From a phage: a stretch of DNA of 64,000 nt. Below the pieces are notes generated by a model that saw only the letters and a program-made list of their open reading frames with translations, was not told the origin of the DNA and did not search any database. Location of the stretch: sequence record PZ347661.1; one strand, given 5' to 3'. Position numbers and translations under genes: made by a program. Below, one piece after another: positions 26,467 to 45,537 of the stretch. Every line of letters starts with the position of its first letter. The first letter of the stretch is position 1.

Positions 26467-26532
26467 TCCGGTGTAGGTACTAGTGTCGTGCACGGCATGA
26501 GTGTTCTGGTTCGAGTCCAGACGCCGGAACCA
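26467..26532 (+). ncRNA. tRNA-like minihelix element with encoded CCA
   Basis: TCCGGTG pairs with CGCCGGA; T-arm TCTGG-TTCGAGT-CCAGA; discriminator A then CCA; body only about 63 nt, too short for a full cloverleaf. Confidence 0.3.
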
Positions 26533-26534
26533 AT

Positions 26535-26658
26535 TACCAGTTGCACGAGATGGCTTGATATGTTCAAGTTTGGACTAAGTGTGACACCGCTAGATTGGAG
26601 AGCTGCTGCGGTAAGCTATAGACTCCAACCGGGGGTTCGAATCCCTCACTGGTAACCA
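26535..26658 (+). ncRNA. tRNA-like element with oversized body and encoded CCA
   Basis: TACCAGT pairs perfectly with ACTGGTA; T-arm GGGGG-TTCGAAT-CCCTC; discriminator A then CCA; about 121 nt between acceptor strands with internal hairpins. Confidence 0.3.
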
Positions 26659-27102
26659 ATTCAAAGTAGCATTGCACTAATCCATCCCGGAGTTCAAAGG
26701 CCAAACATGGAGCAGTGCTACTTTGAATTAGAAAGATTATGGGGGTAAGTCGTAACCATACGACGGCGTAAGTACCAGATGAGACTTCTGGACGCCCCTA
26801 CCAGATTTGGGGTGTAACAGTTAGATCCAGTTGCCGGAAGTGCTATTCTAGATACGCTGCCAATGTGTGAACGGTAAGGCTGTACAGGACTCGGACTCCC
26901 ACCTCAAACCAAAGTCGCCAGGTACTTATGGCAAACGGGTAGTAACGAACTAGTCATTCGTCAAACGCCCAACCTATTATGAGTCAGCAAGAACGCCTTC
27001 ACTTAAACTTAAACAAAAAAGCTTAACGCAATAATTATGTAGGGGTATGTAAGGATTGCGAAGAAGGAGCCAGTTAAAGTCTGGCATGGCTCAACCTATT
27101 AT

Positions 27103-27176
27103 GCCCACTTAGCTTAGACAGGGAAAGCAACCGACTAATAATCGGAAGGTCACTGGTTCAAATCCAGTAGTGGGTA
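27103..27176 (+). tRNA. tRNA gene, canonical cloverleaf, anticodon loop CTAATAA
   Basis: Acceptor GCCCACT/AGTGGGT; T8 A9; D-stem GCTT/AAGC with 9-nt loop containing GGG; anticodon stem CCGA/TCGG; 5-nt variable loop; T-arm ACTGG-TTCAAAT-CCAGT; 74 nt. Confidence 0.55.
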
Positions 27177-27491
27177 CTTATTTGCTGCAATATTCCCATA
27201 GGGAATGGTGCCGTATACGCCACCTAGTTTCTGGTGAAACTCCAGATGCAGCAATCCATTCAGCAGTAACATAGTCCTGATTGCATTGCACTCTAAAGAC
27301 AACACTGGTAAGACAGTCCAGTGACTGCTAATGTACTGTTATTCCCCTCGACGGGAATTTCGCTAGTGAAGGTAACACTTAAAAATCCAAACCTACGTCT
27401 TACTACTATCGGGCTATCAACCCACAGTCGCTTAACACACTAGTGGTAGTAGTTTGACGGCCTAGCCTCGTTAGCTGCGTTAAAGCTACTA

Positions 27492-27517
27492 AGTCCCTCT
27501 TCGGAGGGACTTTTTTA
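27492..27517 (+). terminator. rho-independent terminator
   Basis: AGTCCCTC-ttcg-GAGGGACT followed by TTTTTT. Confidence 0.75.
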
Positions 27518-27687
27518 TTTGAGTATTAATAAATGGATATTCAGGATGATTGACCTAATTTCTACTCCGTATGCCTATGAGGTAACGGATAACCGAGGAC
27601 ATAAGTACTTGGTATTTGCAGGTAGCGTAGCCTATAACAACGCAGTAATGTTTAAGTACAAACTCAAACCACTCTATGAGGCTAATA

Positions 27688-28713: not shown

Positions 28714-31700
28714 TTAGTTAGTGAGGTTGAGCCAAGGGTTCAGGTTATGAGCACGTAAGCCTTGACCGAAACCGAAGGAGTAACCAAGGTTGCCTTGTGC
28801 AGCAATGCTAAAGATGTTGTCCTGAATAGGCAGGCCAACGTTACCAAACATAGTAGGAGTTGGAGCCAGCATAGCCATAGCAGCATGTACAGGGTTGTTA
28901 CGAATCATGGACACTGCAACTTTTGCGGAACGAATCTTAAAGTTGTAGAACCACATAAGACCAACGCTTTCCATATAACCACGGAAGCGTCCTGGCAAAC
29001 GGTCATAGTTAATGAACTCTTCCGTCACACGTCCAAGTGCTTCTTCACGGGTTTTACCTTTACGCTTAGTCAGTTCATCATAGATGATCGCTTTAGCAAT
29101 AAAGTCAGAGTACTCAACCGTCTTCTGGATACCCTGGAAGAGAGCAGTATCCTTAGTGATAAGTGCATAACGACCTGCATTGCGTACAGACTTAGGCAGC
29201 TTATCAGCCAGCTTATCCATGTATTCGTGGAGTTTGCCCTCAGTAATCAGGATGTCATCACGTCCAATACCAGCATCTGCAATTGAGGAGAACTCACCTG
29301 CTTCTAGCAGAGGCCAGATACTCAAACGCTTATGACTATCCGTGATGGACTGAATCTCAGCTTTCAACTTACGAATCTGGTTCGGGTTAGTAGCTGCACG
29401 TAATTCTGCTTCTGCATCTACCTGACGTAAACGAGATTTCAGATACTGGTTAATCTCAGCAGTCTTCTGTGGAATGCTCTTAGCAATGTTCTTAACGGGT
29501 ACACCACGAGCAACCATCTGATAAAGGTTAGCCAGGAAGTTAACAGCAGGTACGACTACTGACTTAACTACAATCAGAGTCTTAGCTTCTTTAACTAAGT
29601 TTTGAACCAGGTTCTCACCACCCATTACATACTTGTAGGCACGGTTGCCGAATACACCCAACATAGCCTTCTTGAAGGTATCCAGCGTTTCTGGGGACCA
29701 ACGAGAATTACCAGACCAGGCATCACCAACGGAAGCTGCACGATAACCAAGAGCATCATTAAGCATGTCACGACGTACCCACAGCTCACCTGGGCCAAAC
29801 AGACTTTCTGCTTTCTGACGTGTTTCACTGTTCATCAGTTTAAGAGCATCGGCAGTTACTGGGTCCAGTTTAGAACCAAGAAGGTTAACGTACTGAGACT
29901 TATTAGAAGCAGACATCTTAATGTCGTTCTCATACATGCTATACAGATTCTCAATTAGCATATCGTTGAAACGCTGGGCCTTGGCCTCTTCTACCTGACG
30001 ACCACGCCATACACCAATTGCACGAGCAAGATGGTTCTCACCCTCAATGTGCTTCAGCATGTTAGGGTCAATGGATTGCTCATAAGCAACCACATTACCA
30101 TTGGCATCATATACAGGCAGAAGTGGTTCATTACCTCGTTCACCACGAGCCAGTGCTTTGGTGATACGGTCCACGGAAGGCTTGTCAGTAATACGACCTG
30201 CTACCATGGTTCCCATCGTAAAGCCTGTACCAAGGTCTACACCACCAGCAGTATTACGAACGTTCTGTAAGATACCCTGTGAGAATGGAGCCTGTGACTG
30301 TACTGGTGCAAAGTAGTAGCTACGTGCTGGACCACGATTAGCAGAGCTACCCTGATAAGTACCCAGACGTACATAAGACTTCTCAATCAAATCAGCAAAT
30401 TGATTATCTTCAGCAACAATCAGGTTAACACCTTGTTTGTTCTCACCAGGGATATACCCTTTGTACTGGTTCAAGGTTGCACGCGAATCAGACTTGGCTT
30501 TAGCCATTTCATCCTTACGTTGACCAACCAGGTAAGAAGTAGCAAAGTCCATACCTTCAATTTCTGTCTGAGCCAGTAAAGATAACATCTCACGGTCAGA
30601 TTTATTCATTGCTTCCAGTGCATACAGGGTAATGAGTTTATCCAGTTGAGCTACATCAACAACAGAGCGTGTAGTCTTACGCTCACCCAGCAAGCGTGAA
30701 ATTGCAGTAGCATTACGCAACAAGTTATTTCCGACTGTACCATTAATCATGTACTGAGCCAGTTGCTTAGATTTACGGCTAATCAGATGCCAGTTACGTC
30801 CTGCTTGTTTCTGCAAATCTGCTTCCAGTTTATTAACCTCACGGTCAACAATCTTCTGGTCAGACAACAGGTCACGAATTTCAGCCAGAGACATAGTGTC
30901 ACGCAGGACAGCTAAGTCAGTTTTACCCATACCGGTATGCATTGCTTTCCACTCAACATTAGTCAGCTTACGGCTGAACTTAGATGCGATAGTGGTAGGC
31001 AGGTGTTCACGGAACTGTTGACGGTCAGCCTGTACCTGTGCACGTACTGCTTTAATCAAATCATATACAGAAGCATTACTCTTAGTACGACCGATTATGT
31101 CATTAACCAGGTCATGGAACGGTTGCCATACTTTACCCTGGTTCATTGCAGCCATAACACCTTCAGCTACGATTGAACCATTCTTCTCTGTAGCAATAGC
31201 AGCTACCAGTTGTGCAGCATGAGCAGCACCTTTAACCAATGGGTTCTTGGTATTAGCTGCAACTTCACGAGCACCTTCCAAAGCACGGGTAGACAGTACA
31301 TCAATAGAATCCACCAGATACTGGTTAGCACGGTCAATAGCATTACCGGTAGGAGTAGCAACGGAATCATAGAAGGACTCTGCATTAAGACTGGTCTGCA
31401 TAATTGTCTGAGCTAGTGCATCCATACCTTCTTGTACGTTAGTGGCTTTAGTATCGCCTGCTACACGGGCATTCAGACTAGCCATTGCAGCAGTACCGAT
31501 GTTAGTCAGCATTGCATCAACAGTATTGCCTGACTTCTTATCTGCTTTCATAACAGGAATATCAGCCAGTACTTTACGTACCTCTTCACTTACCATTGCC
31601 AGACCAACAAAGGTAGGCAGCAAGGAAGAACGACCCTGTGCATCAAACTCAATGTTGTTAGCACCCATGATGGTATCGAACTTCTGCTGTGCATAGTAAC

Positions 31701-34700
31701 GGTCAGCAGGGTTAGTACTATCTGGGTCAGCCATGAACGATTCAACAGTTAGGTTCTTAGTAACGTGTGTGTAGTATTCCTGTGCACGAGCCATGGCAGC
31801 TGGGTTAATAGCAGCCTCGGTAGCCAGTGCAGCAACAATGTTAGTGAAGAGACGCTGTTCCTGCATATTCATGGTGAAGCCATGAGCCTGAACATCACGA
31901 GTTACTTTAGTTGCATTCACTACTGCATCAGAGAACTTACCTTTACGAATTACTTGCTGTACTGGTTCTGAACCAATGTAGTCAGTAATCAGTTTATCGA
32001 AGGTTTTTCCTAACTCTTCCAGACGAGTATTGTTACCGTATGCTTTGTTATGGAACAGGGTAGTGTCCTTAGCTACAGCAGCAGTAGGAGCCTGTCCACG
32101 CATAACTACAGCAGAGTTAAACAGTAAGCCAGAGAACATATCATCTGCATTAGACGGAGCTTTCTTACGTCCAAATACCAGGCGTTTGATTGCTTCATAT
32201 ACAGCCTGAGCCATAGCTTTAAGTGCAGTGGTTTTCTTCTGCTTACCAATCAGTTCACGGTTAGTTAAGCCCCAAGCCATGTACTCATTCAATGCAGCAG
32301 CTTTAGCCATTGCTGGTTCAATGAAGCCATTGGACAAGTGACCATTAATGGTATTCAGTGCATCAGCATATGCTTCACGTACTACCGGAGATTCATCCTT
32401 AACATCCAGAGTACGGAATTGGTTCATCAGGTCTTCAATATTCTGGACAGCTTCATTAGGAGTACCCTCATAGTGAGCCAGTACAGATTCAAAAGTAGAG
32501 GCATGTACTAATTCATGAACCAGAGTCTCTAAGGAAGGGGTAACTAAGTAGATGGTCTTATCTTCAAAGTTAGTCCAGCCATATGCATTACCAGCTTCAG
32601 CAGCTTCAATATCTTCCGGTGCAGGGCGAGTAATATTCTTCTCAATAGCGTAGGCATCCAGTTGAGAAGGTGTACCGTAAACAACCTTATAGTCTTTAGC
32701 AGCAAGAGATTTCTGTATTTCTTTCAATACTGCTTGCTGTTCAGGAGACATCTCTTTAGCCAGCTTAGTGATAGCAGTATTAGACAGCAGACGTACACCA
32801 GACTTCAGTACACGACCTACCTTCTCCATAGCTGGTACAACTTTCACCGGCACTTCCTTCACTGGTTCTGCCTTCGTTGGTTCCGCTTTAGCAGCACGTA
32901 CTGCTTCACGACGCTTGTTTAGTTCAGCATCAAACAGCTCGTTCAGCTTAGCTACTTGCTGGTCTACAGTCAGACCTTCCAGAGAGATTTTACCGTTGTT
33001 CACATAAGGAGCACCTACAGCAGCCATCTGGTCAACAGTGACCTGTACCTGGTCCATTACCTTGTGACGAATATCTACACCCAAAGCAATGTTACGCAGG
33101 TTACGCTCAATCAGTGCAATACCAGAATCTCTAATCATAGAAATTTTATAATCTCTATCACCATCTACTCTGGCAATATGAGCACGTTGCTCAAAGTCTA
33201 AAGCAGACTTTGCAATAGCATCTATTGCTGAATCGGACAGCTTATTTAAATCAACATTCTTAACAAACTTAGAGAAAGACTCATATACATTCTTGATAGG
33301 GTTACCCTGCCAGGAAGTATATACAGCCTCATTAGCTTTACGGCTTGCATCAGTAATGTCATTAATACCAATGTTCATACCATCAAAGATTTTCAGGGTA
33401 TTCTTCGGAGCACCTTTCATAGTAGAAAGAGTCTGCATCATCATGCCATCACCAGTACCGATGGTCATAAATGGAATACCTGCAACACCTGCTTGCGAAG
33501 GAGCATAGATGCTCATTGGCACACGCATACGGTCATCTAAGTTGGTGGCCAGTACTTGGTTAGCAACATCAGTGTTTTCACTACCAGCAATGTAGAAAGT
33601 CTGTGAGCCAGTCTTAATCATTGGAGCCAGTGGTGCTAAGCTATTCTGGATTTCATTCAGTTCTTTCTGTGTTAAGAAATCGCCTTTTTTCCATGTTGGG
33701 TCTTTTTCTTTTTCTGCCAGCTTAGCCTGTACTGCCTGTTGGAACATATCCTGCAATACCAGAGATTGTATCTGAGTAGCCTTCTGCAAGTTCTCAGTAG
33801 AGTGCATCAACCCTTCACCAACAGTAAATCGGATACCTTGTCTCATTGGCTCAACAAAGAAATGCAGCATATTCTCTTGTAAGTTCTTCAGAGCATCCCC
33901 GGATACGGTAAACTCCTGAGGATTTAACTCACCAGTCAGAACACCATCTACTTCCTTAATAAATAACCTACCTTTGCGTTTGGCTGGAATCTTGCCAGTC
34001 AATGCTTCCATAGAAGTAAGGAAGGTATCCAGCATAGCCTGAGCATCAGCTTCAGAAGCAGCCTCCTTACCAAACATCGCCATAGCTGGGGAAATGCTAG
34101 GGTCAGCAGCACGGGCTTTTAGAACGTCGCTTAAGCGTTCATAGATGGCGTCAGTAATTGCACTTACCATCTTGCCTGCAATACCGCGAGCACCAGAACC
34201 ATAAATGGTAATAGTCAGTGGGTTTTTAGCGATACCACGCTTCAGGTCCAGAGTACCATCTTCATTAAGATTGAAGTCTTTGATGAACAGGTCCATTAAC
34301 TTCTGGAGATGGTCCATCTGATTTATAATAGGAATATTTTTGCTGTAAGTATTGCGTAGTTCATTCAGATGGAATTGCAGACTATTGGTAGATGCTTCAT
34401 ACAGGTCAACATTATCATCCTGAGTATGATGCTCATTCATAGTCTTACCGGCTTTACCGAAGAACAAACCACCTTTAGCAGTATTCTTAATCCAGTTTGG
34501 GGTGAACTTACCACCAGTCATTAATACCATTGCGTTGATTGGCCCGTTGGTTACACCATCGGCTTCAACGTACAGTGGGGTATTAAAGTTGGCTCGGTCA
34601 TCACTGTTAAGGTAACGGGCATATTCCATAAGAGCCATGAGAGCTACAAATGATTTATCATTACCCAGAGATGTTCTCAGGATATCCACTGCGTCAGCAG

Positions 34701-37700
34701 GCAAGTATCCAGACTTATCAAACTCAACCATCATATCTACAGCAGGCTTCAGTTTACCTTCCAGAGCCTTGGTAAGTTCTTCTGACATAGTTTCACGAGT
34801 CATTTTATGAACTTTGATACCCAATGCCTGAGCCAGACCTAACTGGAAGCCAGAGAAGTCTTCATTGTTTTGGTTCGATAAATCCAGAGTAGCTTTAGTA
34901 GGTAAGATAGCCTCACGAACCAGCTTAGCTGATTGAGGATTGTATTTGCCCAACATCTGCATACGACCAACACGGGTCATATTGTAAGCATAGTGAATAG
35001 GTACAGAAGAAATGTCTTCACTCTGTGCTCTCACCTGTTCAATAACAGAGAACAGTTGGTTGTAAGAATCTTCTACAGAACGATTCTTACCTTCCAGAGA
35101 TTTAGCATGGTTCTTATTAAGTAAATCCTTATCCAGAGTACCTGCACCCATCAGTTCAAGGATACGGTCTTTACCTAATGCTTCATAGAACTGAACCATT
35201 GGAGTATGTACAAAGAACTCAGTAGCCTGTTCTGCTTTAAGAGCAGCTTTCTGTTCTGGAGTATTACGGACAGCAGGGTTACGTAACTGAGTAGGAGCCA
35301 CTGAAGGAATATCATCACCCAGGTACAATTTCTCTTCTGGTTCTACGAGGACAGCTTCCTCGATAGCAGTAGGGAATTTGTTAATGGCATCGTTATCATC
35401 CAGTTTCTCAATGGTATACAGACCAATAGTCTTATTAGATTCTGGGTCAATTTCAGACACATCAAGCATAGACTCTTTAACTTCACCCATCTCAATGAGA
35501 GAAGACAGAATCTCTGTAGCCATTGCCATTGGAATACCTTTGGTATAACCCAATGGTGCATCAGCATTACGATTAAGTCCCCAATAAGATTCAATCTTTT
35601 GAGCCAGTGAGTTAGTAGCTTCTACTAAGGTTTGTGCATTCTCAAATTCTGCGAGGATGCCCTCTGGTAACAAGGAAGCATTTACACCAGTAATTGCAGC
35701 CACATCCTGCATGTCTTTAATAGCAGCATTCTGTGTAGCAGTAAGTCGCCATTGCAGACCAGCAAGTACAGCAGTCTCTAATAACTGGTCATTGAACTTA
35801 AAGGTATCACCATCTTTCTCTACGATGTTAAGCAGTTTGCCACCTACCCAACGGTTAGCCTCAGTACCCTCTGCAAAACGTTTACCAACATTCTTGTTAG
35901 CAAGGAACTTAGCCAGACGATCAGACAGAGTAGTCTTCAGAGTTTCACCAAAATCAAATAAGTCCTGGTAACGCTTAATCACATCACTTGTGAGAGCGTT
36001 ATTTTCTCTTTGAGTGAATGCTTCAAAACGAGCAGCAGAAGACAATGCTTTCTTAACATCAGTCAAAGGAGATTCAGAACCAATGGTACGAGACTTAGGT
36101 TCTTCTGGAAGAGAAAATGCTTTAAGGAACTGGTTCGGTGTCTTGTCGTTGTTATAGACAGGGAACACTGTTTCTATTCCCGATAGAGGTTTACCGCCAA
36201 CGGTATAGTCTGCTTTCAGTTGAGCCAGTGATACTTCTTCCTTCTCGACGTTATTGGTATTAAGCCCAGATGTATCTACACCAATCTGAATCAGTGCATT
36301 GTTTGCTTCTACGAATGATTGAACAGTATTAAATTGTTCCGGGGTCAGCTTCTGGTTATCAAACAGTTGCAAAGATACAAATGGTTGTTCACTACCTTTG
36401 TAGAAGGTAGAGCGAATAGCACCAGTATCTAAAGACATATCACGATAACCATCATGACCAAATACATCAGACAGACTGATATGGTCACCATTAGAACCAA
36501 CAACAGTACCATCAGCAAAGAGCCATGGACTTTCCCTACGGTCACCATACTTATTAAGAGTATCTTGTGAAATAGTATTCTCTTTCACATAAGAATCTCT
36601 TTCAGATTCAGTAGGCTGTTCAACGGTATCCTGTTTTTCAGACTGGTTCTCAGGTTCTTTTACAGTCTGTGGTTTAGACTCTTTATTAGTAGGTTCTGTT
36701 TTAACAGCTTCACTAACAGAGGGTTTAGTCTGTACAGTAGGGGTAACTGGTTCCTGTTTCGTAACAGGAGTTTCATCAACCTGATTCACTGGTTCATTGG
36801 TCTGTTGGGATTGAGCAGCATCAAGATTGCCCTGACGGAACTCTTTAACTACCTGGGCAGCAGGCTTGTCCAGACGTGAATCCAATGGGGTAACTTTCAC
36901 ATGAGAAACATTAAGCTCCGGGTAAGCCGTAGCAAGTGCGTTAGCAATATCAGCTACGGTCTTGGCTTCCAGTCCTACTTGCTGGGCAAACTTAACAGAC
37001 TTGGTATCATACGGATTGACACCGAGGCCAGTACGACTACGTACCCATTCACGCGAGGGAGTAAGAGCCTGATAATGGACAGACTTATTCTTATCCGCAT
37101 TCCCAGAAATCAGATGCTCATTCAACGCTCCGACCTTATTCTGCATGTGCTGGGCGAACTTCATAAAGTCGTCGAGATAAGCGGAAGCCAAATCGAAGTT
37201 ACCAGAGTTGTACGCAGAACGAATGCGTTTAGCATGTTGCAACGCAGAGTACTGGCCTTCATTAGAACGAGATTCGTCGGTTTTAATTTGTTTACTAACA
37301 ATGTCTTGAGGACGTAAGCCTAGTTCTTCTGCTTTAGCGTCAAATTCTCGTGCTCCTTGCAATAGAGCAGCAGCAGATTGCAGGGCAGCACGCTGACGAT
37401 TCCCCAGTGTAATCTTACCTTCACTCGCATGTTTCAGAACCATGTTCACTGAATCTGCATCCAGTACTTCTGGAGACACATCAGCAGCCATAGCAATATT
37501 GTTTGCCTGGGCTTGGTTAGCTTCTTCAGTAGCTTTCAGTTTACCTGCTTCAGCCTGTTCCTGAATCATGGAATGAATGGCACGGAATGCACGGAGTACT
37601 TTCGGTGTATTCTGAACATTAGCCATCAGGCCGGAGAACTGGTCAACGATATTAGCAGCAGGAGAACCCTGTTCCAGATTAGCTAATGCACCTGGGTCAC

Positions 37701-39531
37701 GGTTAATGAAGCTATCCATAGACATGATGTTGTCATACATCTGGATTGCAGCTTCCATTTGAACGTTAGGGTCTTCAGCAGTATTAACCAGGTCAGCCAT
37801 CTTCTGAATAGCTTCAACACGGTTAGTGGAACCAGAAACAGCTTCACGGATTGCAGGACTAGCTTGTTCCAGTTCTACTGGGTCAAACTTCATTGCCTGA
37901 GTTAAGTCAGCAGCATACTGAGTAGCAGCAGCTTTCTCTTCAGGAGAAATATCCATTGCATCTACTGCTTCCTGAACAGTTGCTTGTGCTTGTTCTGCCT
38001 GAGCAGTAGCTTCCTGTGCAGCAGCGTTAACTGTAGCATCTGATACAGGGGATGCTTGTTCATTACGCTTAGCAACTTCTTCTCCACGTTGAACCAGAAT
38101 GTTAGTAATAGGTGAAGCTACTTTTGCTAATGCCTTACCAGCCAGAGAAGCACCAGCCAAGGTAGTACGTACAGCAGGACCAACGGCAGCACCAGCAGCC
38201 TTAACAGTTGCACCAGGAGCTTGAGCAACTCCAGCAGAACCGAAGCCGTACAGTGCACCCAGACCTGCTTGCTCACCAACACCTTTGAGGATGTCACGAG
38301 ATGCATCAACATTACCTTGGATTGCCTTGTTCTGTGCAAACTGACTTGTACCAGACTGGATACCTTCTTCTACAGTCTCACGCAGCATGTTGGAACCAGC
38401 ACCAGCCAGTGAACCTACCTTAAGTGGATTAAGTTCAAACTTGGATACCAATGGAGCAGTAAGAGCAGCAACTGGAGCAGTTAAACCAGCAGCAGTGATA
38501 CCTGTTTCAGATGCAGTCTGACGTCGTGCCTCTTCAGGAGTTAAGCCGTCTTTAATGTGTTGTTGGTATACAGGAGATTTAGCAGCCAGTTCACTGAATG
38601 GCATTTCCATAATTTCATTGGCAGTCTGTTGATATGCACCACCAGCTTCCATACCACCAATTGCTATAGCAGGTGCAGCAATACGACCAGCAGTCTGTGC
38701 AATCCGTGCAGGACGTGAACCTAACTCAGCAGCTAAGGTAATACCCTTAACAGCTTTGTCCCCACCTACCATTACTTTACCAAGTGCGGATACACCACGG
38801 ATAAGTGGACCACCAGTGAAGAGAGAACCAACGCCTTCAGCCAGACCATCTGTAGCAGCCATGCCATTGGACAAGGTATTAGCAACAGAATCATAAGCAT
38901 CCCGACCAATTCGAGACAGAGAAGCAACGAGTTCACTTTCTCCTTTAGCAATATCCTGCTTATAGAGTTTCTCATTTTCCTGTGCAGATATTACGTTCTG
39001 GTTCTGTACTACATTACGACGAGCATTCAGTGCATCAGACTGTAGGTTGTGTACACCTTTATTCAACCAGTCAAGACCGGAAGCAATGGATGCCCCGGCA
39101 TTATCATTGACCAAGCCTGTGCCAAGAGCAGCAATGCCCCCAAGGGTATTAGCAACACCAAGACCAACACCAGAAAGGGTATCACCAAGTGCTTCACCAT
39201 ATGTGCGACTCTTAGTTAAATCACGACGAACAGCATTAGCTGCATTGACACGAGCATTGAGAATGTCCATTCCTTGCTCATTGCCATACTTGTTTACGAT
39301 TTCAAGAGGGGAGGCATTAGTAAAATCTGCCTGAATAGAACCTGGGTCAAATGCACCAGCACCTAAGTCACCGGCACGTCCTGCCTGTAATTGGTAAGCG
39401 TTCTGAGAAGTTAATTGGAAAGGGTTTTGCCCTTGTTCAGCTTGTTTCCGAGAGGTTGCAGTAGAGACATCGACTTGCTTAGCAGTAGTGATGCTGTCTG
39501 CGAAACCTGCCAGACGGTCAAATGTTGACAT
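28714..39531 (-). CDS. virion-encapsidated RNA polymerase (N4 vRNAP-like giant protein)
   Basis: About 3600-aa ORF at the head of the late block; central region has single-subunit RNAP-like motifs (VEADGVTNG, KNPLTITIYGSGARG, KIFDGMN); ATG at 39531 with AGGA RBS, alternative TTG at 39549. Confidence 0.85.
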   Translation of the reverse strand: MSTFDRLAGFADSITTAKQVDVSTATSRKQAEQGQNPFQLTSQNAYQLQAGRAGDLGAGAFDPGSIQADFTNASPLEIVNKYGNEQGMDILNARVNAANAVRRDLTKSRTYGEALGDTLSGVGLGVANTLGGIAALGTGLVNDNAGASIASGLDWLNKGVHNLQSDALNARRNVVQNQNVISAQENEKLYKQDIAKGESELVASLSRIGRDAYDSVANTLSNGMAATDGLAEGVGSLFTGGPLIRGVSALGKVMVGGDKAVKGITLAAELGSRPARIAQTAGRIAAPAIAIGGMEAGGAYQQTANEIMEMPFSELAAKSPVYQQHIKDGLTPEEARRQTASETGITAAGLTAPVAALTAPLVSKFELNPLKVGSLAGAGSNMLRETVEEGIQSGTSQFAQNKAIQGNVDASRDILKGVGEQAGLGALYGFGSAGVAQAPGATVKAAGAAVGPAVRTTLAGASLAGKALAKVASPITNILVQRGEEVAKRNEQASPVSDATVNAAAQEATAQAEQAQATVQEAVDAMDISPEEKAAATQYAADLTQAMKFDPVELEQASPAIREAVSGSTNRVEAIQKMADLVNTAEDPNVQMEAAIQMYDNIMSMDSFINRDPGALANLEQGSPAANIVDQFSGLMANVQNTPKVLRAFRAIHSMIQEQAEAGKLKATEEANQAQANNIAMAADVSPEVLDADSVNMVLKHASEGKITLGNRQRAALQSAAALLQGAREFDAKAEELGLRPQDIVSKQIKTDESRSNEGQYSALQHAKRIRSAYNSGNFDLASAYLDDFMKFAQHMQNKVGALNEHLISGNADKNKSVHYQALTPSREWVRSRTGLGVNPYDTKSVKFAQQVGLEAKTVADIANALATAYPELNVSHVKVTPLDSRLDKPAAQVVKEFRQGNLDAAQSQQTNEPVNQVDETPVTKQEPVTPTVQTKPSVSEAVKTEPTNKESKPQTVKEPENQSEKQDTVEQPTESERDSYVKENTISQDTLNKYGDRRESPWLFADGTVVGSNGDHISLSDVFGHDGYRDMSLDTGAIRSTFYKGSEQPFVSLQLFDNQKLTPEQFNTVQSFVEANNALIQIGVDTSGLNTNNVEKEEVSLAQLKADYTVGGKPLSGIETVFPVYNNDKTPNQFLKAFSLPEEPKSRTIGSESPLTDVKKALSSAARFEAFTQRENNALTSDVIKRYQDLFDFGETLKTTLSDRLAKFLANKNVGKRFAEGTEANRWVGGKLLNIVEKDGDTFKFNDQLLETAVLAGLQWRLTATQNAAIKDMQDVAAITGVNASLLPEGILAEFENAQTLVEATNSLAQKIESYWGLNRNADAPLGYTKGIPMAMATEILSSLIEMGEVKESMLDVSEIDPESNKTIGLYTIEKLDDNDAINKFPTAIEEAVLVEPEEKLYLGDDIPSVAPTQLRNPAVRNTPEQKAALKAEQATEFFVHTPMVQFYEALGKDRILELMGAGTLDKDLLNKNHAKSLEGKNRSVEDSYNQLFSVIEQVRAQSEDISSVPIHYAYNMTRVGRMQMLGKYNPQSAKLVREAILPTKATLDLSNQNNEDFSGFQLGLAQALGIKVHKMTRETMSEELTKALEGKLKPAVDMMVEFDKSGYLPADAVDILRTSLGNDKSFVALMALMEYARYLNSDDRANFNTPLYVEADGVTNGPINAMVLMTGGKFTPNWIKNTAKGGLFFGKAGKTMNEHHTQDDNVDLYEASTNSLQFHLNELRNTYSKNIPIINQMDHLQKLMDLFIKDFNLNEDGTLDLKRGIAKNPLTITIYGSGARGIAGKMVSAITDAIYERLSDVLKARAADPSISPAMAMFGKEAASEADAQAMLDTFLTSMEALTGKIPAKRKGRLFIKEVDGVLTGELNPQEFTVSGDALKNLQENMLHFFVEPMRQGIRFTVGEGLMHSTENLQKATQIQSLVLQDMFQQAVQAKLAEKEKDPTWKKGDFLTQKELNEIQNSLAPLAPMIKTGSQTFYIAGSENTDVANQVLATNLDDRMRVPMSIYAPSQAGVAGIPFMTIGTGDGMMMQTLSTMKGAPKNTLKIFDGMNIGINDITDASRKANEAVYTSWQGNPIKNVYESFSKFVKNVDLNKLSDSAIDAIAKSALDFEQRAHIARVDGDRDYKISMIRDSGIALIERNLRNIALGVDIRHKVMDQVQVTVDQMAAVGAPYVNNGKISLEGLTVDQQVAKLNELFDAELNKRREAVRAAKAEPTKAEPVKEVPVKVVPAMEKVGRVLKSGVRLLSNTAITKLAKEMSPEQQAVLKEIQKSLAAKDYKVVYGTPSQLDAYAIEKNITRPAPEDIEAAEAGNAYGWTNFEDKTIYLVTPSLETLVHELVHASTFESVLAHYEGTPNEAVQNIEDLMNQFRTLDVKDESPVVREAYADALNTINGHLSNGFIEPAMAKAAALNEYMAWGLTNRELIGKQKKTTALKAMAQAVYEAIKRLVFGRKKAPSNADDMFSGLLFNSAVVMRGQAPTAAVAKDTTLFHNKAYGNNTRLEELGKTFDKLITDYIGSEPVQQVIRKGKFSDAVVNATKVTRDVQAHGFTMNMQEQRLFTNIVAALATEAAINPAAMARAQEYYTHVTKNLTVESFMADPDSTNPADRYYAQQKFDTIMGANNIEFDAQGRSSLLPTFVGLAMVSEEVRKVLADIPVMKADKKSGNTVDAMLTNIGTAAMASLNARVAGDTKATNVQEGMDALAQTIMQTSLNAESFYDSVATPTGNAIDRANQYLVDSIDVLSTRALEGAREVAANTKNPLVKGAAHAAQLVAAIATEKNGSIVAEGVMAAMNQGKVWQPFHDLVNDIIGRTKSNASVYDLIKAVRAQVQADRQQFREHLPTTIASKFSRKLTNVEWKAMHTGMGKTDLAVLRDTMSLAEIRDLLSDQKIVDREVNKLEADLQKQAGRNWHLISRKSKQLAQYMINGTVGNNLLRNATAISRLLGERKTTRSVVDVAQLDKLITLYALEAMNKSDREMLSLLAQTEIEGMDFATSYLVGQRKDEMAKAKSDSRATLNQYKGYIPGENKQGVNLIVAEDNQFADLIEKSYVRLGTYQGSSANRGPARSYYFAPVQSQAPFSQGILQNVRNTAGGVDLGTGFTMGTMVAGRITDKPSVDRITKALARGERGNEPLLPVYDANGNVVAYEQSIDPNMLKHIEGENHLARAIGVWRGRQVEEAKAQRFNDMLIENLYSMYENDIKMSASNKSQYVNLLGSKLDPVTADALKLMNSETRQKAESLFGPGELWVRRDMLNDALGYRAASVGDAWSGNSRWSPETLDTFKKAMLGVFGNRAYKYVMGGENLVQNLVKEAKTLIVVKSVVVPAVNFLANLYQMVARGVPVKNIAKSIPQKTAEINQYLKSRLRQVDAEAELRAATNPNQIRKLKAEIQSITDSHKRLSIWPLLEAGEFSSIADAGIGRDDILITEGKLHEYMDKLADKLPKSVRNAGRYALITKDTALFQGIQKTVEYSDFIAKAIIYDELTKRKGKTREEALGRVTEEFINYDRLPGRFRGYMESVGLMWFYNFKIRSAKVAVSMIRNNPVHAAMAMLAPTPTMFGNVGLPIQDNIFSIAAQGNLGYSFGFGQGLRAHNLNPWLNLTN

Positions 39532-39597
39532 AGCATGATTCCTGTTCAAACTTATATCGTATAAGAAGATTCACTGTACAGTAAGTGAATGTAAGAG

Positions 39598-39634: not shown

Positions 39635-41581
39635 TTATCGAGGTTGCATATAGGGAGGTAAACCCTCTGCTAATTTTAGGTAACGTTTAGCACGTTCTTC
39701 ATCTTCACGACTACGTTCACGCTCTACTGAAGCATTAGAACGGAAGTTCTGTGGAACCAGGTTTCCTTGGTCAGCCACTACAGTATTGACAGCAGCATCT
39801 AGTGCAGCCCGTGCTCTTGCTAACTCAGCTTCACGAGCAGGGATAGTAGCAGCAAGCCCACTTTGCCCAGCAGCTACACGACGACGAGTATCAGCAAGTA
39901 AGGCTTCTGCTTGTGTTACCTGGTTCTGGGCATTAGCAATATTACCCTGTACCTGGGTAAGAACATTATCACGAGCAGTAGCTTCAATACCTTCCCCACG
40001 TCGTACCGAACGTGCCAGTTCTCTGGCAACGGTATCGTCAATACGAATTCCATTACCACCTTCCGGTGATTTCCCTGGTGTAAGCGCATCCCAGGTACGA
40101 CCGAGGATACCTTCCGGTACGTTGGTAATAGACTGCTTAAGAATCTCAGCAGCTACAGCAGGAGACTGTCCGGATTCCTGCATAACTTTATTCAGTCGAG
40201 CTATCATCCATCCTTTCTCAGAACCTTTGAAAGCATCCTTAAGAAGACGGTCTGCCACTTCACCAATGGTAGAATTATCACGCAATGCACGAGCATAGTT
40301 AGCAGTAATGGTTCCAGTATTATCTTCCGACTGACGTGCAGCAACTGTATTGCCTGCCATGTTTGAAACTACTTGCTGGGTCTGTAGCTGGTCAATAGGT
40401 GCACCTACTTCTGCCTGTGCAATTAACTGACGTGCTTCACTCCATGGCATGTCCTTATAACCACCCACACCCAAGTCAGGCAATGCTGCCCAAGTCTTGG
40501 AAAGGTTACCATTCTTACGGTCATTGAAGATTGCTTCAGCTATTTTGTCCTGTACTTCAGGAGTCATTTGCTGATTACGCCAACCTGAACCAAGTACTTT
40601 GGGGGCATAGTCTTCCAGAGTAGCTTTATTAATCTGGAATGCACCTACAGGAGAATGACCTTGTGATGGGTTATTAATCATAGTTTGCTGATGATTAGTA
40701 ACCTCTCCCAGTGTCATCTCGGTAATAGGCTTATCAGTAGCAGCAAAGGTATATGTTGCATCATAAGGGGAACCAGAACGAGTACCAGCAGTTCCTGGAG
40801 CAGAGCCAGAAGAAGACGTAGCATAAGTACCAGGGAATCTCTGGTTCACACCTCGCATGATTGCAGCACGTACACCAGGAGAAGCATTCTGCATAGCAGA
40901 CTCTGCCAGTGTAAGAGCATCCATAGGTGTGGAAGCACTACGGAAAATATCAGTCAGTATACCGGATGCAGCTTGCGAATCAGCATCATTACGCTGAGCC
41001 ACACCCAAATCAAAGCGGTTCTGTGCTTGGTTAATAGCCTGACCACCCTGACCTTGAAGACGACTCAGCATATCCAGTTGTTGGTCAGCAGGAAGTGCAG
41101 ACAGTGCCTCACGAGTCTGATTCAATGCAGCATTAACACGGTTCTGGTCACCAGACTGATAAGCCTCAGATAATAAACGGATAGCTGGGGATGCATTATC
41201 TAATGCAGAATCAGTATTCTGTAAACGATCAAAACGATATGCATTGTAATCATTAATTCCCTGCTGACCTTGTTGAGTCAGAAGAGTACCTGCTCGCTCA
41301 TCCAGATTCTGGAGGGTATGTTGGTTTACCAGTGATGGGTCAACTCCCTGGAACAATGCACCAGATGCCAAAGCATTGCGATACTCAGTAGGGTCTTGAT
41401 ACTGCATAGCATTCATCATGACGGCATTGCCAGCCTCCTGCTTGGCAGCGTTCTGGAAGTTACCCAGTGCATCACTTAAGCCGGAGGTGGCGTTACCAAT
41501 CATGCTTCCAAATGTGCGAATGCTGTCACCAACTCCAGAAAAGTTAGGTGCATCAACATTACGCCATGTAATCTGAGCCAT
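39635..41581 (-). CDS. virion internal protein (gp51-like position)
   Basis: 648-aa Q/N/A-rich ORF immediately upstream of vRNAP in the late operon. Confidence 0.45.
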   Translation of the reverse strand: MAQITWRNVDAPNFSGVGDSIRTFGSMIGNATSGLSDALGNFQNAAKQEAGNAVMMNAMQYQDPTEYRNALASGALFQGVDPSLVNQHTLQNLDERAGTLLTQQGQQGINDYNAYRFDRLQNTDSALDNASPAIRLLSEAYQSGDQNRVNAALNQTREALSALPADQQLDMLSRLQGQGGQAINQAQNRFDLGVAQRNDADSQAASGILTDIFRSASTPMDALTLAESAMQNASPGVRAAIMRGVNQRFPGTYATSSSGSAPGTAGTRSGSPYDATYTFAATDKPITEMTLGEVTNHQQTMINNPSQGHSPVGAFQINKATLEDYAPKVLGSGWRNQQMTPEVQDKIAEAIFNDRKNGNLSKTWAALPDLGVGGYKDMPWSEARQLIAQAEVGAPIDQLQTQQVVSNMAGNTVAARQSEDNTGTITANYARALRDNSTIGEVADRLLKDAFKGSEKGWMIARLNKVMQESGQSPAVAAEILKQSITNVPEGILGRTWDALTPGKSPEGGNGIRIDDTVARELARSVRRGEGIEATARDNVLTQVQGNIANAQNQVTQAEALLADTRRRVAAGQSGLAATIPAREAELARARAALDAAVNTVVADQGNLVPQNFRSNASVERERSREDEERAKRYLKLAEGLPPYMQPR

Positions 41582-41593
41582 GATGGTTTCCTA

Positions 41594-42037
41594 TTAACGG
41601 GTTAATTTATTAGCTGCAATATAAGCATCAGCAGTAGACTGGTCACGGTTCTCTGCAACAGCACGACTACGAGCACGGTCTTCCAGTGCAGTGTTATAAG
41701 ACTTAATCTGGTTATTCAGGTTAGTGTTAGTAACACTCTTAGCAAAGTTCAACTGGTCTTTGGCTAACTTATTGGCCTGGAAACCACTATAGATATTAGC
41801 TAATGAACCAAGTGCACCCAGTCCTAACTGAAATGTGGGTACGTTCATACCCAACTGATTGGCCGAACCAGACATGAACGAAGTAGGGGCAGATGCACCC
41901 AAATTCGTACCCATACCAATAGCTGCACCTGGGTTATAGTTCATAGCCGGGGTATTAAAGTTCTGATTGTTATTAGACATCCAAGACATAGCTGCTGGCT
42001 GTGGGGTTTGGTTGCCTGTTAAGAATGACAAATCCAT
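41594..42037 (-). CDS. virion protein (gp52-like position)
   Basis: 147-aa ORF, synteny. Confidence 0.4.
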   Translation of the reverse strand: MDLSFLTGNQTPQPAAMSWMSNNNQNFNTPAMNYNPGAAIGMGTNLGASAPTSFMSGSANQLGMNVPTFQLGLGALGSLANIYSGFQANKLAKDQLNFAKSVTNTNLNNQIKSYNTALEDRARSRAVAENRDQSTADAYIAANKLTR

Positions 42038-42050
42038 GGGGATTCTCCTG

Positions 42051-44693
42051 TTAAACTAAGTCAGTATTAAGGGTCATGTCAGAGTAGTTACCTATCATGT
42101 CTAAAGACAGGTCGGCTATATCTGAACCAGTCATGAGAGTACGTGATAAGAATGAATCCAGTGACTCCATTGACACGAATTGCATTGGGTCAATTACACC
42201 CTGTCCAGCAGTACCAAACATTTCTTCATACTGCTTATTGATTTCCATCATATCAGTATTGTACTGCTGCATTACTTTCTCTGCTTTCTGAATAGTAGCA
42301 GCCGTAGATGCATTAATATACTGGCTAATACCATTACCTACTGAACTGGTAAGCTGCATGATGTTTTGGGCATTCATCATTTCACTTGCCAGAGCAGACA
42401 GAGATGTACCAGTAGACATAGCAGTACCAACATTCATAGCTACCATCGAAGCAACGGCTGCAATGATAAAGCCCAGTTTGTCTCCGAACAGTGCAGCAGA
42501 TACTTTAGTGATAATGGATACCAGAATCATTCCAGCAATAGCGTTTGCTACAGCACCGACTATCACAGCAGCTAATCCAACAAAACCCAGAGATGCACCA
42601 ACTGCACCATATGCACCAAGTATACCTGCACCACCAGCACCAGCTGTAAATACAGAGATAACCACAGCGACCACTACAACAACAATCTTAAATGCCCCAG
42701 TCTGATACCACTTCTGCTTAACCTTCTTATATGAGTTCATCACTAAGTAGGAGCAGGCAGTAGATAACTGAGTACTTCGAACTAGTGACATGGAACGATA
42801 GATGTTGGTGTGCAGTGGGATAATGAACCCACTCTCTTCTGCATCACCCATTGCTTCGGCTACATCAATGTGCACTGACTTATTTTTGTATACCCTGTTA
42901 TTGTGGTTTAGGCCCAGTACCCTGAGTTTACGGTAAGTGTCATTACCATCCTGCCAGAGTAACTCATACTCCTGCATAGAGTAGAATGTAGTGGTAACTT
43001 CCAGTTTGTTGTTAGTACCAGTGCGTATGTTCTTACGAGTAAGAGTTATATCCCCTGCATATCTGGATCGAAGTTGCCCTTGCTTAGCACCAGACCATGC
43101 TTGCCCCGAATGAGTAGTTTCAGATACATAGTTCCAGCCAATAGTCATGTCGTACTTGTACTGCTTATTGCTATGTACCCTAAACTCTCGCTTAGGTATA
43201 ACTGGGTATTCCGGCAGTGGAGGAGGTGTTCCAACAATCTGACCTTCCTGCCTGTTCCACCATTCTACATATGCATCAACTGCATCATTAGCTGCCTGAT
43301 AACCTGCAATTACTGCTTCCAAAGTCGGGTAGGTTGGGTCAGGTGGGAATGCTTCAGTAGCCATCTGAAAGAAACGATAGATATATTCCTTAGCAGTGTC
43401 TTCTGGAGTATTAAGAGATACACCGAATGTGCCGTAAATGTACTGAATATCTCCTATGTCATCATTCTTCTTAAGCTCTGTCACCACCTTATCAATTTTC
43501 CCACCAGTAGCTTTATAAAGAGCTTTCTTACAGTGTGGGTAGATTGAGTCATTCTCTACCCATTGCTTGTCATTCCTGATTGGAATGAATGGATAGAATC
43601 GGTTATCAGTAGCTTCGGTATTAAACAGTGAATCTAGTGCAACATTACCAGAGTTTTGCTTATAGATAAGCAATTTAGGTGTACCAACAGCAGTCATCTC
43701 AGTATCTGTACGGGTAGTCTGGGATGAGTACTTACGAACCAGTGTCTCTGTGGTTGTAGTAATTGTGTCAGTACGTGTAACACCACCACCTATATCAACT
43801 ACATTGGTAGTTACAGTAGTACTGGATTGAACCTCACCAAACTTTTTGTGGGTCATTACTCTGTCAGATACAACTACAGTCACATCATCAGGTTTCTCTG
43901 TAAATCCTCTACGATAAACCTTAACGTAAGAATTCCAGTTATCCACACTTGGTTCAGTGACAGTACTATCTTCATCCGGTCTGCCATCAGAGTAGACAGA
44001 ATGAGTATGTGTAGTCTTAGTAAGATTAGTTGTATTAGCTGTTGTATCACTTGATACAGTAGTCCATAACAAAGTGGAGGGTAAGTCACCCTCATTGTCA
44101 TAGACAGTAGTCGGCCCTACTACCGGAGGATTAGTATTAGGGGACTTGTAAAATGAGTAATAAGCATAGAGATATAAAGCACCTGGTTCAAAGTTAGTAG
44201 GTGTGAATTTAATAGTGGAACCTCCATCTAAGGAGGTCATAGTAATTTCATTGGTATCTTCATCAATATCTATGTCGAATCGTTCCATGATTCGACTTGG
44301 AGCATTCTCATAAAGATACTGGTCACACCATTGTTCAAAGTCAGCAAAGCCAATCTCTGCTGCCTGAACATAGACAGACTCTCCAGTAGGAGGTGTAATT
44401 TGACCCTCTATAACAGTAGGGTCAATCTTAGCCAACACACCTAATGAAGAACCAGCCATACCAACTTTTGAATCATAGTGATTCTTACTCCAGCTGGAGA
44501 ACAGTCGCATACGAATACCCGGCCCATTCAGATAACTATCAGAGATAGTGTCTGCCATAGTGAATCCTGTATTGGAAACAATGTTACCAATGACCACAGT
44601 TTTCATATAGTTAGGACGTTTATGTATATCCCCTGCCATGTTATAGACAGAGGATGCTACGTATACTTTGGTCTTCCCACTGAATAAGCCCAT
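42051..44693 (-). CDS. large virion protein with Gly/Ala-rich multi-helix hydrophobic segment (gp53-like position)
   Basis: 880 aa; C-terminal about 120 residues of GxxxG/AxxxA-rich hydrophobic sequence. Confidence 0.45.
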   Translation of the reverse strand: MGLFSGKTKVYVASSVYNMAGDIHKRPNYMKTVVIGNIVSNTGFTMADTISDSYLNGPGIRMRLFSSWSKNHYDSKVGMAGSSLGVLAKIDPTVIEGQITPPTGESVYVQAAEIGFADFEQWCDQYLYENAPSRIMERFDIDIDEDTNEITMTSLDGGSTIKFTPTNFEPGALYLYAYYSFYKSPNTNPPVVGPTTVYDNEGDLPSTLLWTTVSSDTTANTTNLTKTTHTHSVYSDGRPDEDSTVTEPSVDNWNSYVKVYRRGFTEKPDDVTVVVSDRVMTHKKFGEVQSSTTVTTNVVDIGGGVTRTDTITTTTETLVRKYSSQTTRTDTEMTAVGTPKLLIYKQNSGNVALDSLFNTEATDNRFYPFIPIRNDKQWVENDSIYPHCKKALYKATGGKIDKVVTELKKNDDIGDIQYIYGTFGVSLNTPEDTAKEYIYRFFQMATEAFPPDPTYPTLEAVIAGYQAANDAVDAYVEWWNRQEGQIVGTPPPLPEYPVIPKREFRVHSNKQYKYDMTIGWNYVSETTHSGQAWSGAKQGQLRSRYAGDITLTRKNIRTGTNNKLEVTTTFYSMQEYELLWQDGNDTYRKLRVLGLNHNNRVYKNKSVHIDVAEAMGDAEESGFIIPLHTNIYRSMSLVRSTQLSTACSYLVMNSYKKVKQKWYQTGAFKIVVVVVAVVISVFTAGAGGAGILGAYGAVGASLGFVGLAAVIVGAVANAIAGMILVSIITKVSAALFGDKLGFIIAAVASMVAMNVGTAMSTGTSLSALASEMMNAQNIMQLTSSVGNGISQYINASTAATIQKAEKVMQQYNTDMMEINKQYEEMFGTAGQGVIDPMQFVSMESLDSFLSRTLMTGSDIADLSLDMIGNYSDMTLNTDLV

Positions 44694-44694
44694 A

Positions 44695-45537
44695 TTAGTT
44701 CAGCCCGTTGTTAGACTTCAGCTTGGTCAGAATGGTGTCAATACTTGCGTTAGTGAAGCCATTCGGTGGGTTCAAGCCTTCATCAATAGTCTTCTGTGTA
44801 ATCCATGCATCAGTAAACAGCTTAGATGCTTTAACTTCTGCATCACGTTGATAAGAAGTAATCTGTTGGGAGTACAACTCTTTCTGTTTACCTACAGAAC
44901 CAGTAACAGTAGCACCATCACTACGGGTATCCAGTGTCTGTGCACGTTGTGCTTCGGTCTGCTCAGTAACCAGCTTAAGCTGTTGAGGTAACATCTGACT
45001 AGCATTAAACAATGCAGCACAGTATGTCTCAGACTCAGTAGCAATTTTCATCTTAGTAAGAGCATATTCACTCTTAGCAGATATTGCCTGAATCTTAGCC
45101 AGTACAAACTGAGCTTTAGAAGTAGCTAATGTAACGCGTGCAGTAACTGCCTGAATCTGTGCCAGTGCAGCAGCCCAGTATGCCTGGTCACGACCAAGTA
45201 AGAACTGAACAGCATTACTCATGCATGATTCCATCATAGCAATGTATGCTTTGGTATATTCACCACCTGTAATACGGTTAGCCTTAAACTCAGCTTTAAG
45301 GTGATTATGTGCAGACTCCATTAATGCATCAAACGTACCACTACCACCTACTTCACGGGTAGTAAGGGATTCATTGGTTACTTTAGAAATAGCACCAAAG
45401 ATTGGAGAACCATCTCCACCTGGGATATCCCATTCAGGGCCGGACATATCAATATCAGGAAGGGTAAAGTCATCACCCTTAGTTAACTCTTCTAGAAGTC
45501 GGTTAGCTTCTACCTCAGCAGAACAAGACATAATCAT
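44695..45537 (-). CDS. virion protein (gp54-like position)
   Basis: 280-aa ORF, synteny. Confidence 0.4.

Follow-up and report, generated by a model that had tools for sequence, protein, structure and literature searches.

A probable tail plug protein of the N4 gp53 type, with a Gly/Ala-rich hydrophobic region, in a G7C-like podophage

The 880-aa protein encoded on the minus strand at positions 42051-44693 of the phage sequence record PZ347661.1 is very probably the tail plug of a G7C-like (Gamaleyavirus) N4-type podophage, orthologous to N4 gp53 and DEV gp74. The whole stretch of DNA that was analysed, 64,000 nucleotides in length, is referred to as the window. The plug protein acts on the ejection conduit, and both the plug function and the explanation of the hydrophobic stretch are already known from the N4 structure. 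The N4 tail plug is also the subject of Zheng et al. (Structure 2025). Judging from orthology with N4 and DEV, the copy number, the position at the tail tip, the hydrophobic knot and the retention on emptied particles would be shared by the protein of this phage.

Identity of the 880-aa protein

42051..44693, minus strand: CDS of the probable tail plug protein (880 aa; ortholog of N4 gp53 and DEV gp74; PHROG 2220)

The ORF started with ATG, and its stop codon occupied positions 42051-42053. These limits agreed exactly with those in a first-pass annotation, which had omitted the (minus) strand and had named N4 gp53-like proteins as the comparison to be made. In BLASTP, residues 1-879 of the window protein (880 aa) aligned with residues 1-883 of N4 gp53 (885 aa) at 55% identity, and against the PDB, the protein matched 9yft_FA ('Gp53') at E=0 (phmmer) and 9ze4_M ('N4 gp53-like protein') at 1e-19. 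The PHROG 2220 profile (positions 1-847 of 850) matched residues 1-879 at E=0, and the core fold of the window protein matched a solved plug structure. Homology and core fold are established for this phage. In Pfam and NCBIfam, no significant family was found for the ORF (the sole Pfam line, DUF7375, had an E-value of 0.047, below the cut-off), and no homology to ejection proteins was found in the PDB, Pfam and NCBIfam searches.

A total of 1627 representatives matched at E<=1e-3, and the hydrophobic module was C-terminal in each of the 150 among those listed. The lengths of the homologs were bimodal, with a class of ~880-920 aa and a class of ~720-760 aa (DEV gp74 type). In the closest GenBank relatives among the matches listed (91-96% identical), the gene was labelled 'hypothetical protein'; a few distant homologs carried the label 'membrane protein', some annotations of homologs also read 'TMhelix containing protein', and the PHROGs entry for PHROG 2220 gave unknown function.

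Plug structures and virion data from relatives

In the cryo-EM structure of N4, the tail tube is closed by a plug made of one copy of gp53, most of which is outside the tube (PDB 9YFT; Bellis et al., Nat Commun 2026, PMC13434306). The tube that it seals is a dodecamer of gp54, the single plug copy is at a 12:6:1 symmetry mismatch, and the plug is held by gp65 domains in a tail-gating complex (gp53 : gp65 D9-D10 : gp54) (PMC13434306). Residues 29-56 and 670-716 fold into a 'hydrophobic knot' corking the gp54 tube at its base. The C-terminal ~160 residues are found in the tail lumen, where residues 717-776 and the polar tail, beside gp52, have no resolved model (PMC13434306). N4 gp52 is stored in the lumen above the plug and is a putative outer-membrane channel; channel activity in lipid bilayers was described for gp52 and gp51 only, and no bilayer recordings for gp53 were found in the N4 paper (PMC13434306). 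The plug was seen on both full and genome-emptied particles. By the authors' own caution, these 'empty' particles had released their DNA in vitro, not into cells, and their proposal is that the plug stays tethered and re-binds the emptied particle through the knot (PMC13434306).

A place in the virion, which the first-pass annotation had also proposed, is supported by mass spectrometry of homologs: N4 gp53 was detected in virions by LC-MS (PMC13434306), as were LIT1 gp74 (PMC3715699) and Moo19 gp70 (PMC11654681) by mass spectrometry. In the related phage Moo19, the tip of the tube also showed weak density to which no protein was assigned. DEV gp74 was assigned as the tail plug (PDB 9ZE4 chain M; mBio 2026, PMC12892993).

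Gene neighbourhood

The plug gene is flanked by the following genes, all on the same strand.

44695..45537, minus strand: tail tube protein, N4 gp54-like, 280 aa, PHROG 2050 (tblastn with N4 gp54, 67% identity)
41594..42037, minus strand: N4 gp52-like ejection protein, 147 aa, PHROG 2646 (61% identity to N4 gp52)
39635..41581, minus strand: N4 gp51-like ejection protein, 648 aa, PHROG 6126, putative periplasmic tunnel (47% identity to N4 gp51)
28714..39549, minus strand: giant virion RNA polymerase (vRNAP), N4 gp50-like (ORF list, annotation of relatives, N4 gene order)

The mechanically called ORF of vRNAP has 3611 aa from TTG, and the true start may lie further in. The gene order MCP, gp55, tube, plug, gp52, gp51 and vRNAP is established for this phage and is identical in N4; Pollock, VBP32 and D505 have the same order. 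The plug gene, previously placed two genes upstream of vRNAP, is the third upstream, since the gp52-like and gp51-like ORFs intervene. It belongs to the structural operon, and its translation appears to be coupled to that of the tail tube gene.

Homologs of N4 gp64 and gp65, considered as plug holders, were searched for by tblastn (E<=1e-3), and none was found in the window; the same search found N4 gp51-57, gp66 (N-terminus only) and gp67. The locus syntenic to N4 gp64/gp65 contained tailspike-like and G7C gp66-like ORFs. Because neither homolog is present in the window, the gating arrangement of the plug must differ from that of N4. Since the DEV plug has a different holder, the gp65 sheath is a trait of the N4 lineage, and not a criterion for the plug family.

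The Gly/Ala-rich hydrophobic region

42366..42710, minus strand: Gly/Ala-rich hydrophobic region, residues 662-776 (Kyte-Doolittle, composition, Hessa-scale sums, conservation)

Within the protein, strong hydrophobicity was confined to residues ~662-776. The Kyte-Doolittle mean (19-residue window) was at least 1.6, unbroken, across residues 662-760; Asp, Glu, Lys, Arg and His were absent from residues 670-729 (a stretch of 60 residues); and Gly and Ala made up 35% of residues 667-776 vs 12% of the remainder of the protein. The peptide VVAVVISVFTAGAGG...AGMIL corresponds to residues 673-724. Both the hydrophobicity and the Gly/Ala enrichment of the region are far beyond chance. Three to four TM-like segments were found, at about 670-688, 697-715, 710-728 and 740-758. 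Fifty-three homologs, with identities as low as 34%, had the region at the same position (family-mean span, 661-761). It was also found in other schitovirus subfamilies (Pollock, VBP32 and D505), where its position and particular Gly/Ala/Asn residues were likewise kept. In the 53 homologs, G699, G703, A709 and G713 were invariant, and G690, G693, G706, N717 and A720 were nearly so. Such Gly/Ala/Asn positions in a hydrophobic stretch point to a defined tertiary packing, and not to a generic membrane anchor.

The extended hydrophobic and Gly/Ala-rich character noted in the first-pass annotation was therefore upheld by the Kyte-Doolittle profile, composition and conservation, whereas the Gly/Ala zipper that it had read there was not. 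When the same region was shuffled, GxxxG (2 observed vs 1.85 expected) was at the level given by composition; [GA]xxx[GA] occurred 17 times vs 13.1 +/- 2.4 expected, a count reached by 7.6% of 5000 shuffles, and [GAS]xxx[GAS] occurred 25 times vs 20.0 expected, reached by 4.3%. The i,i+4 spacing is thus marginally enriched at most, and the conserved glycines, spaced by 3, 6, 4, 3 and 7 residues, formed no regular zipper. On the shuffling results, this periodicity was rejected as a defining feature. A soluble coiled coil, the structure against which the first reading had been set, is ruled out by the composition of this TM-like sequence, which has no charge over 60 residues. Nor does the protein end with the hydrophobic region, as had been stated: 104 polar and conserved residues (777-880) come after it.

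Hessa-scale sums, used as a rough guide and not as a topology prediction because the values are position-independent, were near 0 for residues 670-688 and 710-728. The top-scoring segments of the gp52-, gp54-, gp51- and gp55-like proteins had sums of +7 to +12, and that of vRNAP had +4.4. By sequence, the hydrophobic region of the plug is by far the most TM-like part of the whole ejection module, on a par with a real membrane helix.

The knot, the feather and the C-terminal tail

44526..44609, minus strand: putative hydrophobic knot, N-terminal half, residues 29-56 (N4 residues 29-56 map here, 71% identity)
42546..42686, minus strand: putative hydrophobic knot, C-terminal half, residues 670-716 (N4 residues 670-716 map here, 66% identity)
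43680..44147, minus strand: beta-'feather', residues ~183-338, four long antiparallel strands, Thr-rich (AF2, homolog comparison)
42054..42365, minus strand: polar helical C-terminal tail, residues 777-880, 104 aa (polar profile, conservation, AF2)

Residue numbering was identical to that of N4 gp53 through the hydrophobic region, and both segments that form the knot in the N4 cryo-EM structure (PMC13434306) could be located. Their identity to N4 gp53 (71% and 66%) was higher than that of the feather and core1 (42-43%), and the same trend, with knot segments better conserved than exposed parts, was observed across 50 closer relatives. Conservation of the knot segments is established for this phage. 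Among close and mid-range relatives, the best-conserved segments included 670-716, the N-terminus and 601-669, and the most variable was the feather. AF2 placed helices at residues 29-40 and 46-55 in the N-terminal half of the knot.

The feather strands predicted by AF2 were 211-234, 241-269, 272-302 and 305-334 (pLDDT mostly 82-93). This element is an insertion in the plugs of ~880-920 aa that is missing from those of ~720-760 aa, in which window residues ~183-335 have no counterpart, in line with the feather-shaped beta-sheet described in N4 gp53, but not in DEV gp74 (PMC13434306). In the C-terminal tail, whose N4 equivalent is inside the tail lumen with no resolved model (PMC13434306), E843, R851, T852 and G856 were invariant, and the F(F/Y)xRT motif also occurred in distant subfamilies (Pollock, VBP32 and D505). 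The helices of the tail, including a single long one at 776-825, were predicted by AF2 at low confidence. Since the pLDDT was 33-60 for residues 662-880 as a whole, the knot and the packing of the hydrophobic helices were not reproduced by the model.

Proposed mechanism and alternative explanations

In the mechanism proposed here, the dodecameric gp54-like tail tube would be closed at its distal end by one copy of the plug. Residues up to ~660 (the globular core and the long, four-stranded beta feather) would be located outside the tube, while residues 29-56 and 670-716, the second of these segments being the N-terminal half of the hydrophobic region, would form a compact knot of short helices corking the lumen, in which the invariant Gly/Ala positions would let the helices pack very tightly. 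The other ~165 residues (the second hydrophobic half and the conserved polar helices) may extend upwards in the lumen, alongside stored copies of the gp52-like protein. Engagement of a receptor by the receptor-binding proteins of the tail would displace the plug and release the gp52-like protein, then the gp51-like protein, and then vRNAP and DNA; the trans-envelope channel would be built by the set of gp52-like, gp51-like and vRNAP proteins, and not by the plug.

The first-pass annotation had instead proposed that the protein is ejected, inserts into the membrane and makes up the channel by which vRNAP and DNA enter the host. Although the region is TM-like, the gene adjoins the ejection cassette and vRNAP, and the protein is found in virions of relatives, this explanation is highly improbable and, for N4, contradicted by the cryo-EM data: N4 gp53 is a one-copy cork (12:6:1 mismatch), mostly outside the tube and kept on emptied particles, and three to four helices of one chain cannot line a pore of ~35 Å. 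A folded core of ~660 residues with a beta feather, located at the tail tip and not inside the capsid, also does not fit a cargo protein, and the proteins that form channels in bilayers are gp52 and gp51, both of which have separate orthologs in the window. A role of the region in the producing cell, as an inner-membrane anchor in tail assembly or in a non-structural function (superinfection exclusion or lysis timing), has a negligible probability. It would draw only on the TM-like sequence and the generic 'membrane protein' labels, and is opposed by the N4 structure, in which the region is resolved within the tube of the mature virion, by the location of the gene in the structural operon with apparent translational coupling to the tail tube gene, and by PADLOC, in which no defence or exclusion model matched the ORF.

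We consider it unlikely, to a lesser degree, that the protein acts first as a plug and then as a membrane-active pilot that anchors the tail tip and/or seeds the gp52 channel in the outer membrane. The C-terminal part of ~210 residues (~100 TM-like residues and the polar tail) could be extracted on unplugging and insert like the loops of phi29 gp9, which provide a precedent (PMC6542822). The Hessa-scale sums of residues 670-688 and 710-728, set against the best segments of the other ejection and tail proteins and of vRNAP, would agree with such a role, as would the 'membrane protein' and 'TMhelix containing protein' labels of some homologs, the lumenal location of N4 residues 717-776 and the conserved polar tail, unmodelled beside gp52 (PMC13434306), and the restriction of the N4 bilayer recordings to gp51 and gp52, with none found for gp53. 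Against this, the plug is re-seated on emptied N4 particles, for which the authors propose a tether and re-binding through the knot; the invariance of particular Gly/Ala/Asn residues speaks for a single defined fold; and a virion has a single copy. This reading extends the plug explanation and does not replace it. Within this less probable reading, the exposed and fast-evolving core and feather of the plug in G7C-like phages, which lack the N4 plug-holder gp65, might also have another tail protein as their holder, or might themselves sense the cell surface.

With the tail plug as the preferred assignment, the practical value of the finding is annotation: the gene may now carry the name 'tail plug protein (N4 gp53-like)', and its TM-like stretch has a structural explanation, which should prevent misreadings as a membrane protein or a holin-like protein.

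Comparison with known systems

The N4 gp53 gene, like that of the window protein, is located between those of the tail tube and gp52, and the two proteins share their domain plan (conserved N-terminus, knot-N 29-56, core, beta feather, knot-C 670-716 and lumenal tail). On the other hand, identity in the exposed core and feather is only ~42-43%, and N4 has a gp64/gp65 sheath holding the plug, both components of which are absent from the window. The hydrophobic module and polar C-terminal tail of DEV gp74 align with those of the window protein (E=2e-14), although identity is about 12% in structural alignment; DEV gp74 is a protein of 740 aa without the beta feather, and its holder is the gp56-gp55-gp54 receptor-binding fibre, not a sheath (PMC12892993).

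The L loops of the phi29 gp9 tail knob are a functional analogy only, no sequence or fold relation to the plug having been detected. In mature virions, these loops reportedly obstruct the tube (Xu et al., Nature 2016). On genome release, they leave the tail knob and make up a hydrophobic tip that penetrates the membrane (PMC6542822). Several copies of gp9 form a helix barrel, whereas the plug is one chain, and membrane insertion, shown for phi29 gp9, is hypothetical for the plug.

The podovirus ejection proteins (T7 gp14/gp15/gp16, N4 gp52/gp51/gp50 and DEV gp73/gp72/gp71) are encoded in the same late operon as the plug, adjoining vRNAP, and, like the plug, have hydrophobic helices and take part in genome delivery. 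However, they have no homology to the plug, and their orthologs are other ORFs of the window. They are multi-copy cargo that is expelled via the tail and builds the trans-envelope channel, whereas N4 gp53 is the single-copy gate that retains them.

Genomic setting of the 880-aa ORF

The minus strand carries the claimed ORF at precisely the stated coordinates (42051-44693); it begins with ATG and its product has 880 aa. Since its start codon is located one base after the stop codon of the upstream gene, translational coupling is suggested. The DNA of the locus was 90-94% identical to that of G7C-like coliphages (St11Ph5, ECBP1, EC1-UPM, pSb-1, and others; genus Gamaleyavirus, family Schitoviridae), and the protein, among the GenBank matches listed, was 91-96% identical to "hypothetical proteins" of these relatives; the match in Bp4 was divided between two such features. 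The minus-strand order was portal, gp58-like, gp57-like, major capsid protein, gp55-like, tail tube (gp54-like), the 880-aa ORF, gp52-like, gp51-like, and the giant virion RNA polymerase (vRNAP), corresponding to N4 gp59 down to gp50. The ORF is thus the third gene upstream of vRNAP, not the second as the first-pass annotation had counted, with the gp52-like and gp51-like genes in between.

Features of the late operon and its boundary
25845-25916, plus, tRNA-Ala(CGC), ARAGORN prediction
27103-27177, plus, tRNA-Ile(AAT), ARAGORN prediction
28714-39549, minus, vRNAP, mechanical ORF with TTG start, 3611 aa
39635-41581, minus, gp51-like
41594-42037, minus, gp52-like
42051-44693, minus, gp53-like, 880 aa
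47533-48753, minus, gp57-like, 406 aa, PHROG 2120

In N4, the annotated vRNAP gene spans 10,503 nt (~3,500 aa), versus 3611 aa for the mechanical ORF, whose true start codon probably lies downstream of 39549. PHROG 2120 and the N4 RefSeq record both name the gp57-like protein "tail length tape measure protein", a label that looks doubtful because the phage is short-tailed, its tube consisting of one gp54 dodecamer. Both predicted tRNA genes lie in an interval of ~2.6 kb (25021-27676) that is devoid of ORFs ≥100 aa and separates the plus-strand replication genes from the minus-strand late operon.

Relationship to N4 gp53 and family distribution

The 880-aa protein matched N4 gp53 over its full length (55% identity), and was covered end to end by PHROG 2220 ("unknown function"), while no family was found in Pfam, NCBIfam, or PADLOC. 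Sequence matches in the PDB were 9YFT chain FA ("Gp53"; E=0) and 9ZE4 chain M ("N4 gp53-like protein"; E=1e-19), the latter alignment being strongest over the hydrophobic region and C-terminal tail. In an AF2 model built on a 53-sequence alignment, residues 1-660 were mostly confident: a mixed α/β core and four very long antiparallel strands (211-334), corresponding to the N4 "feather", a β-sheet insertion outside the tube. Residues 662-880 were modeled poorly, as all helical (pLDDT 33-60).

Residues 601-880, used as a query against 1.84 billion representative proteins, matched at least 1627 of them at E≤1e-3 (clusters at 50% identity), a family for which Pfam and NCBIfam hold no model; a few distant homologs are labeled "membrane protein" or "TMhelix containing protein". 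The hydrophobic module was C-terminal in all 150 matches listed. Lengths were bimodal (~720-760 and ~880-920 aa), and the short class lacked window residues ~183-335, the feather, as published for DEV gp74. In Pollock (Humphriesvirinae), VBP32 (Fuhrmanvirinae), and Vibrio phage D505, the layout was retained: a KWYxxGxFK motif, ~90 hydrophobic Gly/Ala/Ser-rich residues, and a polar tail of 118-135 residues with an F(F/Y)xRT motif.

Composition and conservation of the hydrophobic region

The peptide quoted in the first-pass annotation corresponds to residues 673-724, and strong hydrophobicity was confined to the region holding it: the 19-residue Kyte-Doolittle mean was ≥1.6 throughout residues 662-760, residues 670-729 were free of D, E, K, R, and H, and Gly+Ala accounted for 35% of residues 667-776 versus 12% of the rest. 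The hydrophobic Gly/Ala-rich stretch is real; it does not end the protein, being followed by a conserved polar, predicted-helical tail of 104 residues (777-880). The proposed GxxxG/AxxxA zipper appears to be largely an effect of composition: GxxxG occurred twice versus 1.85 expected from shuffles, and [GA]xxx[GA] 17 times versus 13.1 expected (8% of shuffles reached 17).

The span was fixed at 661-761 over 53 homologs down to 34% identity, in which G699, G703, A709, and G713 were invariant and G690, L692, G693, V698, G706, N717, and A720 nearly so. Judged from the alignment, this pattern is more consistent with a specific, closely packed fold than with a nonspecific membrane anchor. The two segments of the N4 "knot" (residues 29-56 and 670-716) fell on identical residue numbers, with 71% and 66% identity, versus only 42-43% for the exposed core and feather; the knot was also better conserved than the exposed parts among 50 closer relatives.

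Probable function as a tail plug

In the asymmetric structure of the N4 tail (Bellis et al., Nat Commun 2026; PMC13434306), the dodecameric gp54 tube is closed by one copy of gp53, the "tail plug" (tube:sheath:plug, 12:6:1); the plug's globular core and β feather lie outside the tube, and six short helices make up a "hydrophobic knot" that corks the tube base. Domains D9-D10 of gp65, the receptor-binding sheath protein, hold the plug, which was found in virions by LC-MS and is carried by both full and emptied particles. Plug homologs were also detected in LIT1 and Moo19 virions, and the Moo19 tube tip shows weak, unassigned "plug" density. The earlier assignment as a gp53-like virion protein with a part in genome delivery is thus upheld, and the protein is very probably the tail plug. 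The hydrophobic region would act as the cork and, with its lumenal extension, keep the tube closed and the gp52-like protein stored inside it until the plug is dislodged by the receptor-binding apparatus.

The mechanism originally proposed, an ejected membrane-inserting protein forming the entry channel for polymerase and DNA, was not borne out: it conflicts with one copy at the tail tip, with retention of N4 gp53 on emptied particles, and with channel formation in planar bilayers by N4 gp52 (putative outer-membrane complex) and gp51 (periplasmic tunnel), both of which have separate orthologs here. Bilayer recordings for gp53 were not found in that paper (PMC13434306). Its abstract reverses the roles of gp51 and gp52; we followed the results, legends, and model for 41594-42037 and 39635-41581. 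It is improbable that the cork later turns into a membrane-active element; a precedent for such a dual role is phi29 gp9, whose hydrophobic loops, held in the tail knob, emerge when the genome is released and build a tip that penetrates the membrane (PMC6542822). Several annotators name homologs "membrane protein", and by a Hessa sum (simple hydrophobicity; a rough guide only) residues 670-688 and 710-728 scored ~0 kcal/mol, a propensity for insertion similar to that of genuine TM helices; the best gp52-, gp54-, gp51-, and gp55-like segments scored +7 to +12, and vRNAP +4.4.

Comparison with known plug systems

tblastn with N4 gp64 and gp65 gave no match in the whole window, and two other ORFs occupied their locus:

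53355-55454, minus, tailspike-like, 699 aa
55512-58253, minus, G7C gp66-like, 913 aa (match to N4 gp66 limited to the first ~72 residues)

Published structures of orthologs, both close and distant, already account for the feature; among them is DEV gp74, a plug held by the gp56-gp55-gp54 fibre (mBio 2026; PMC12892993). Whereas N4 carries gp64 and gp65, the sheath/receptor-binding protein holding the plug, this phage carries tailspike and G7C gp66-like genes at that locus.
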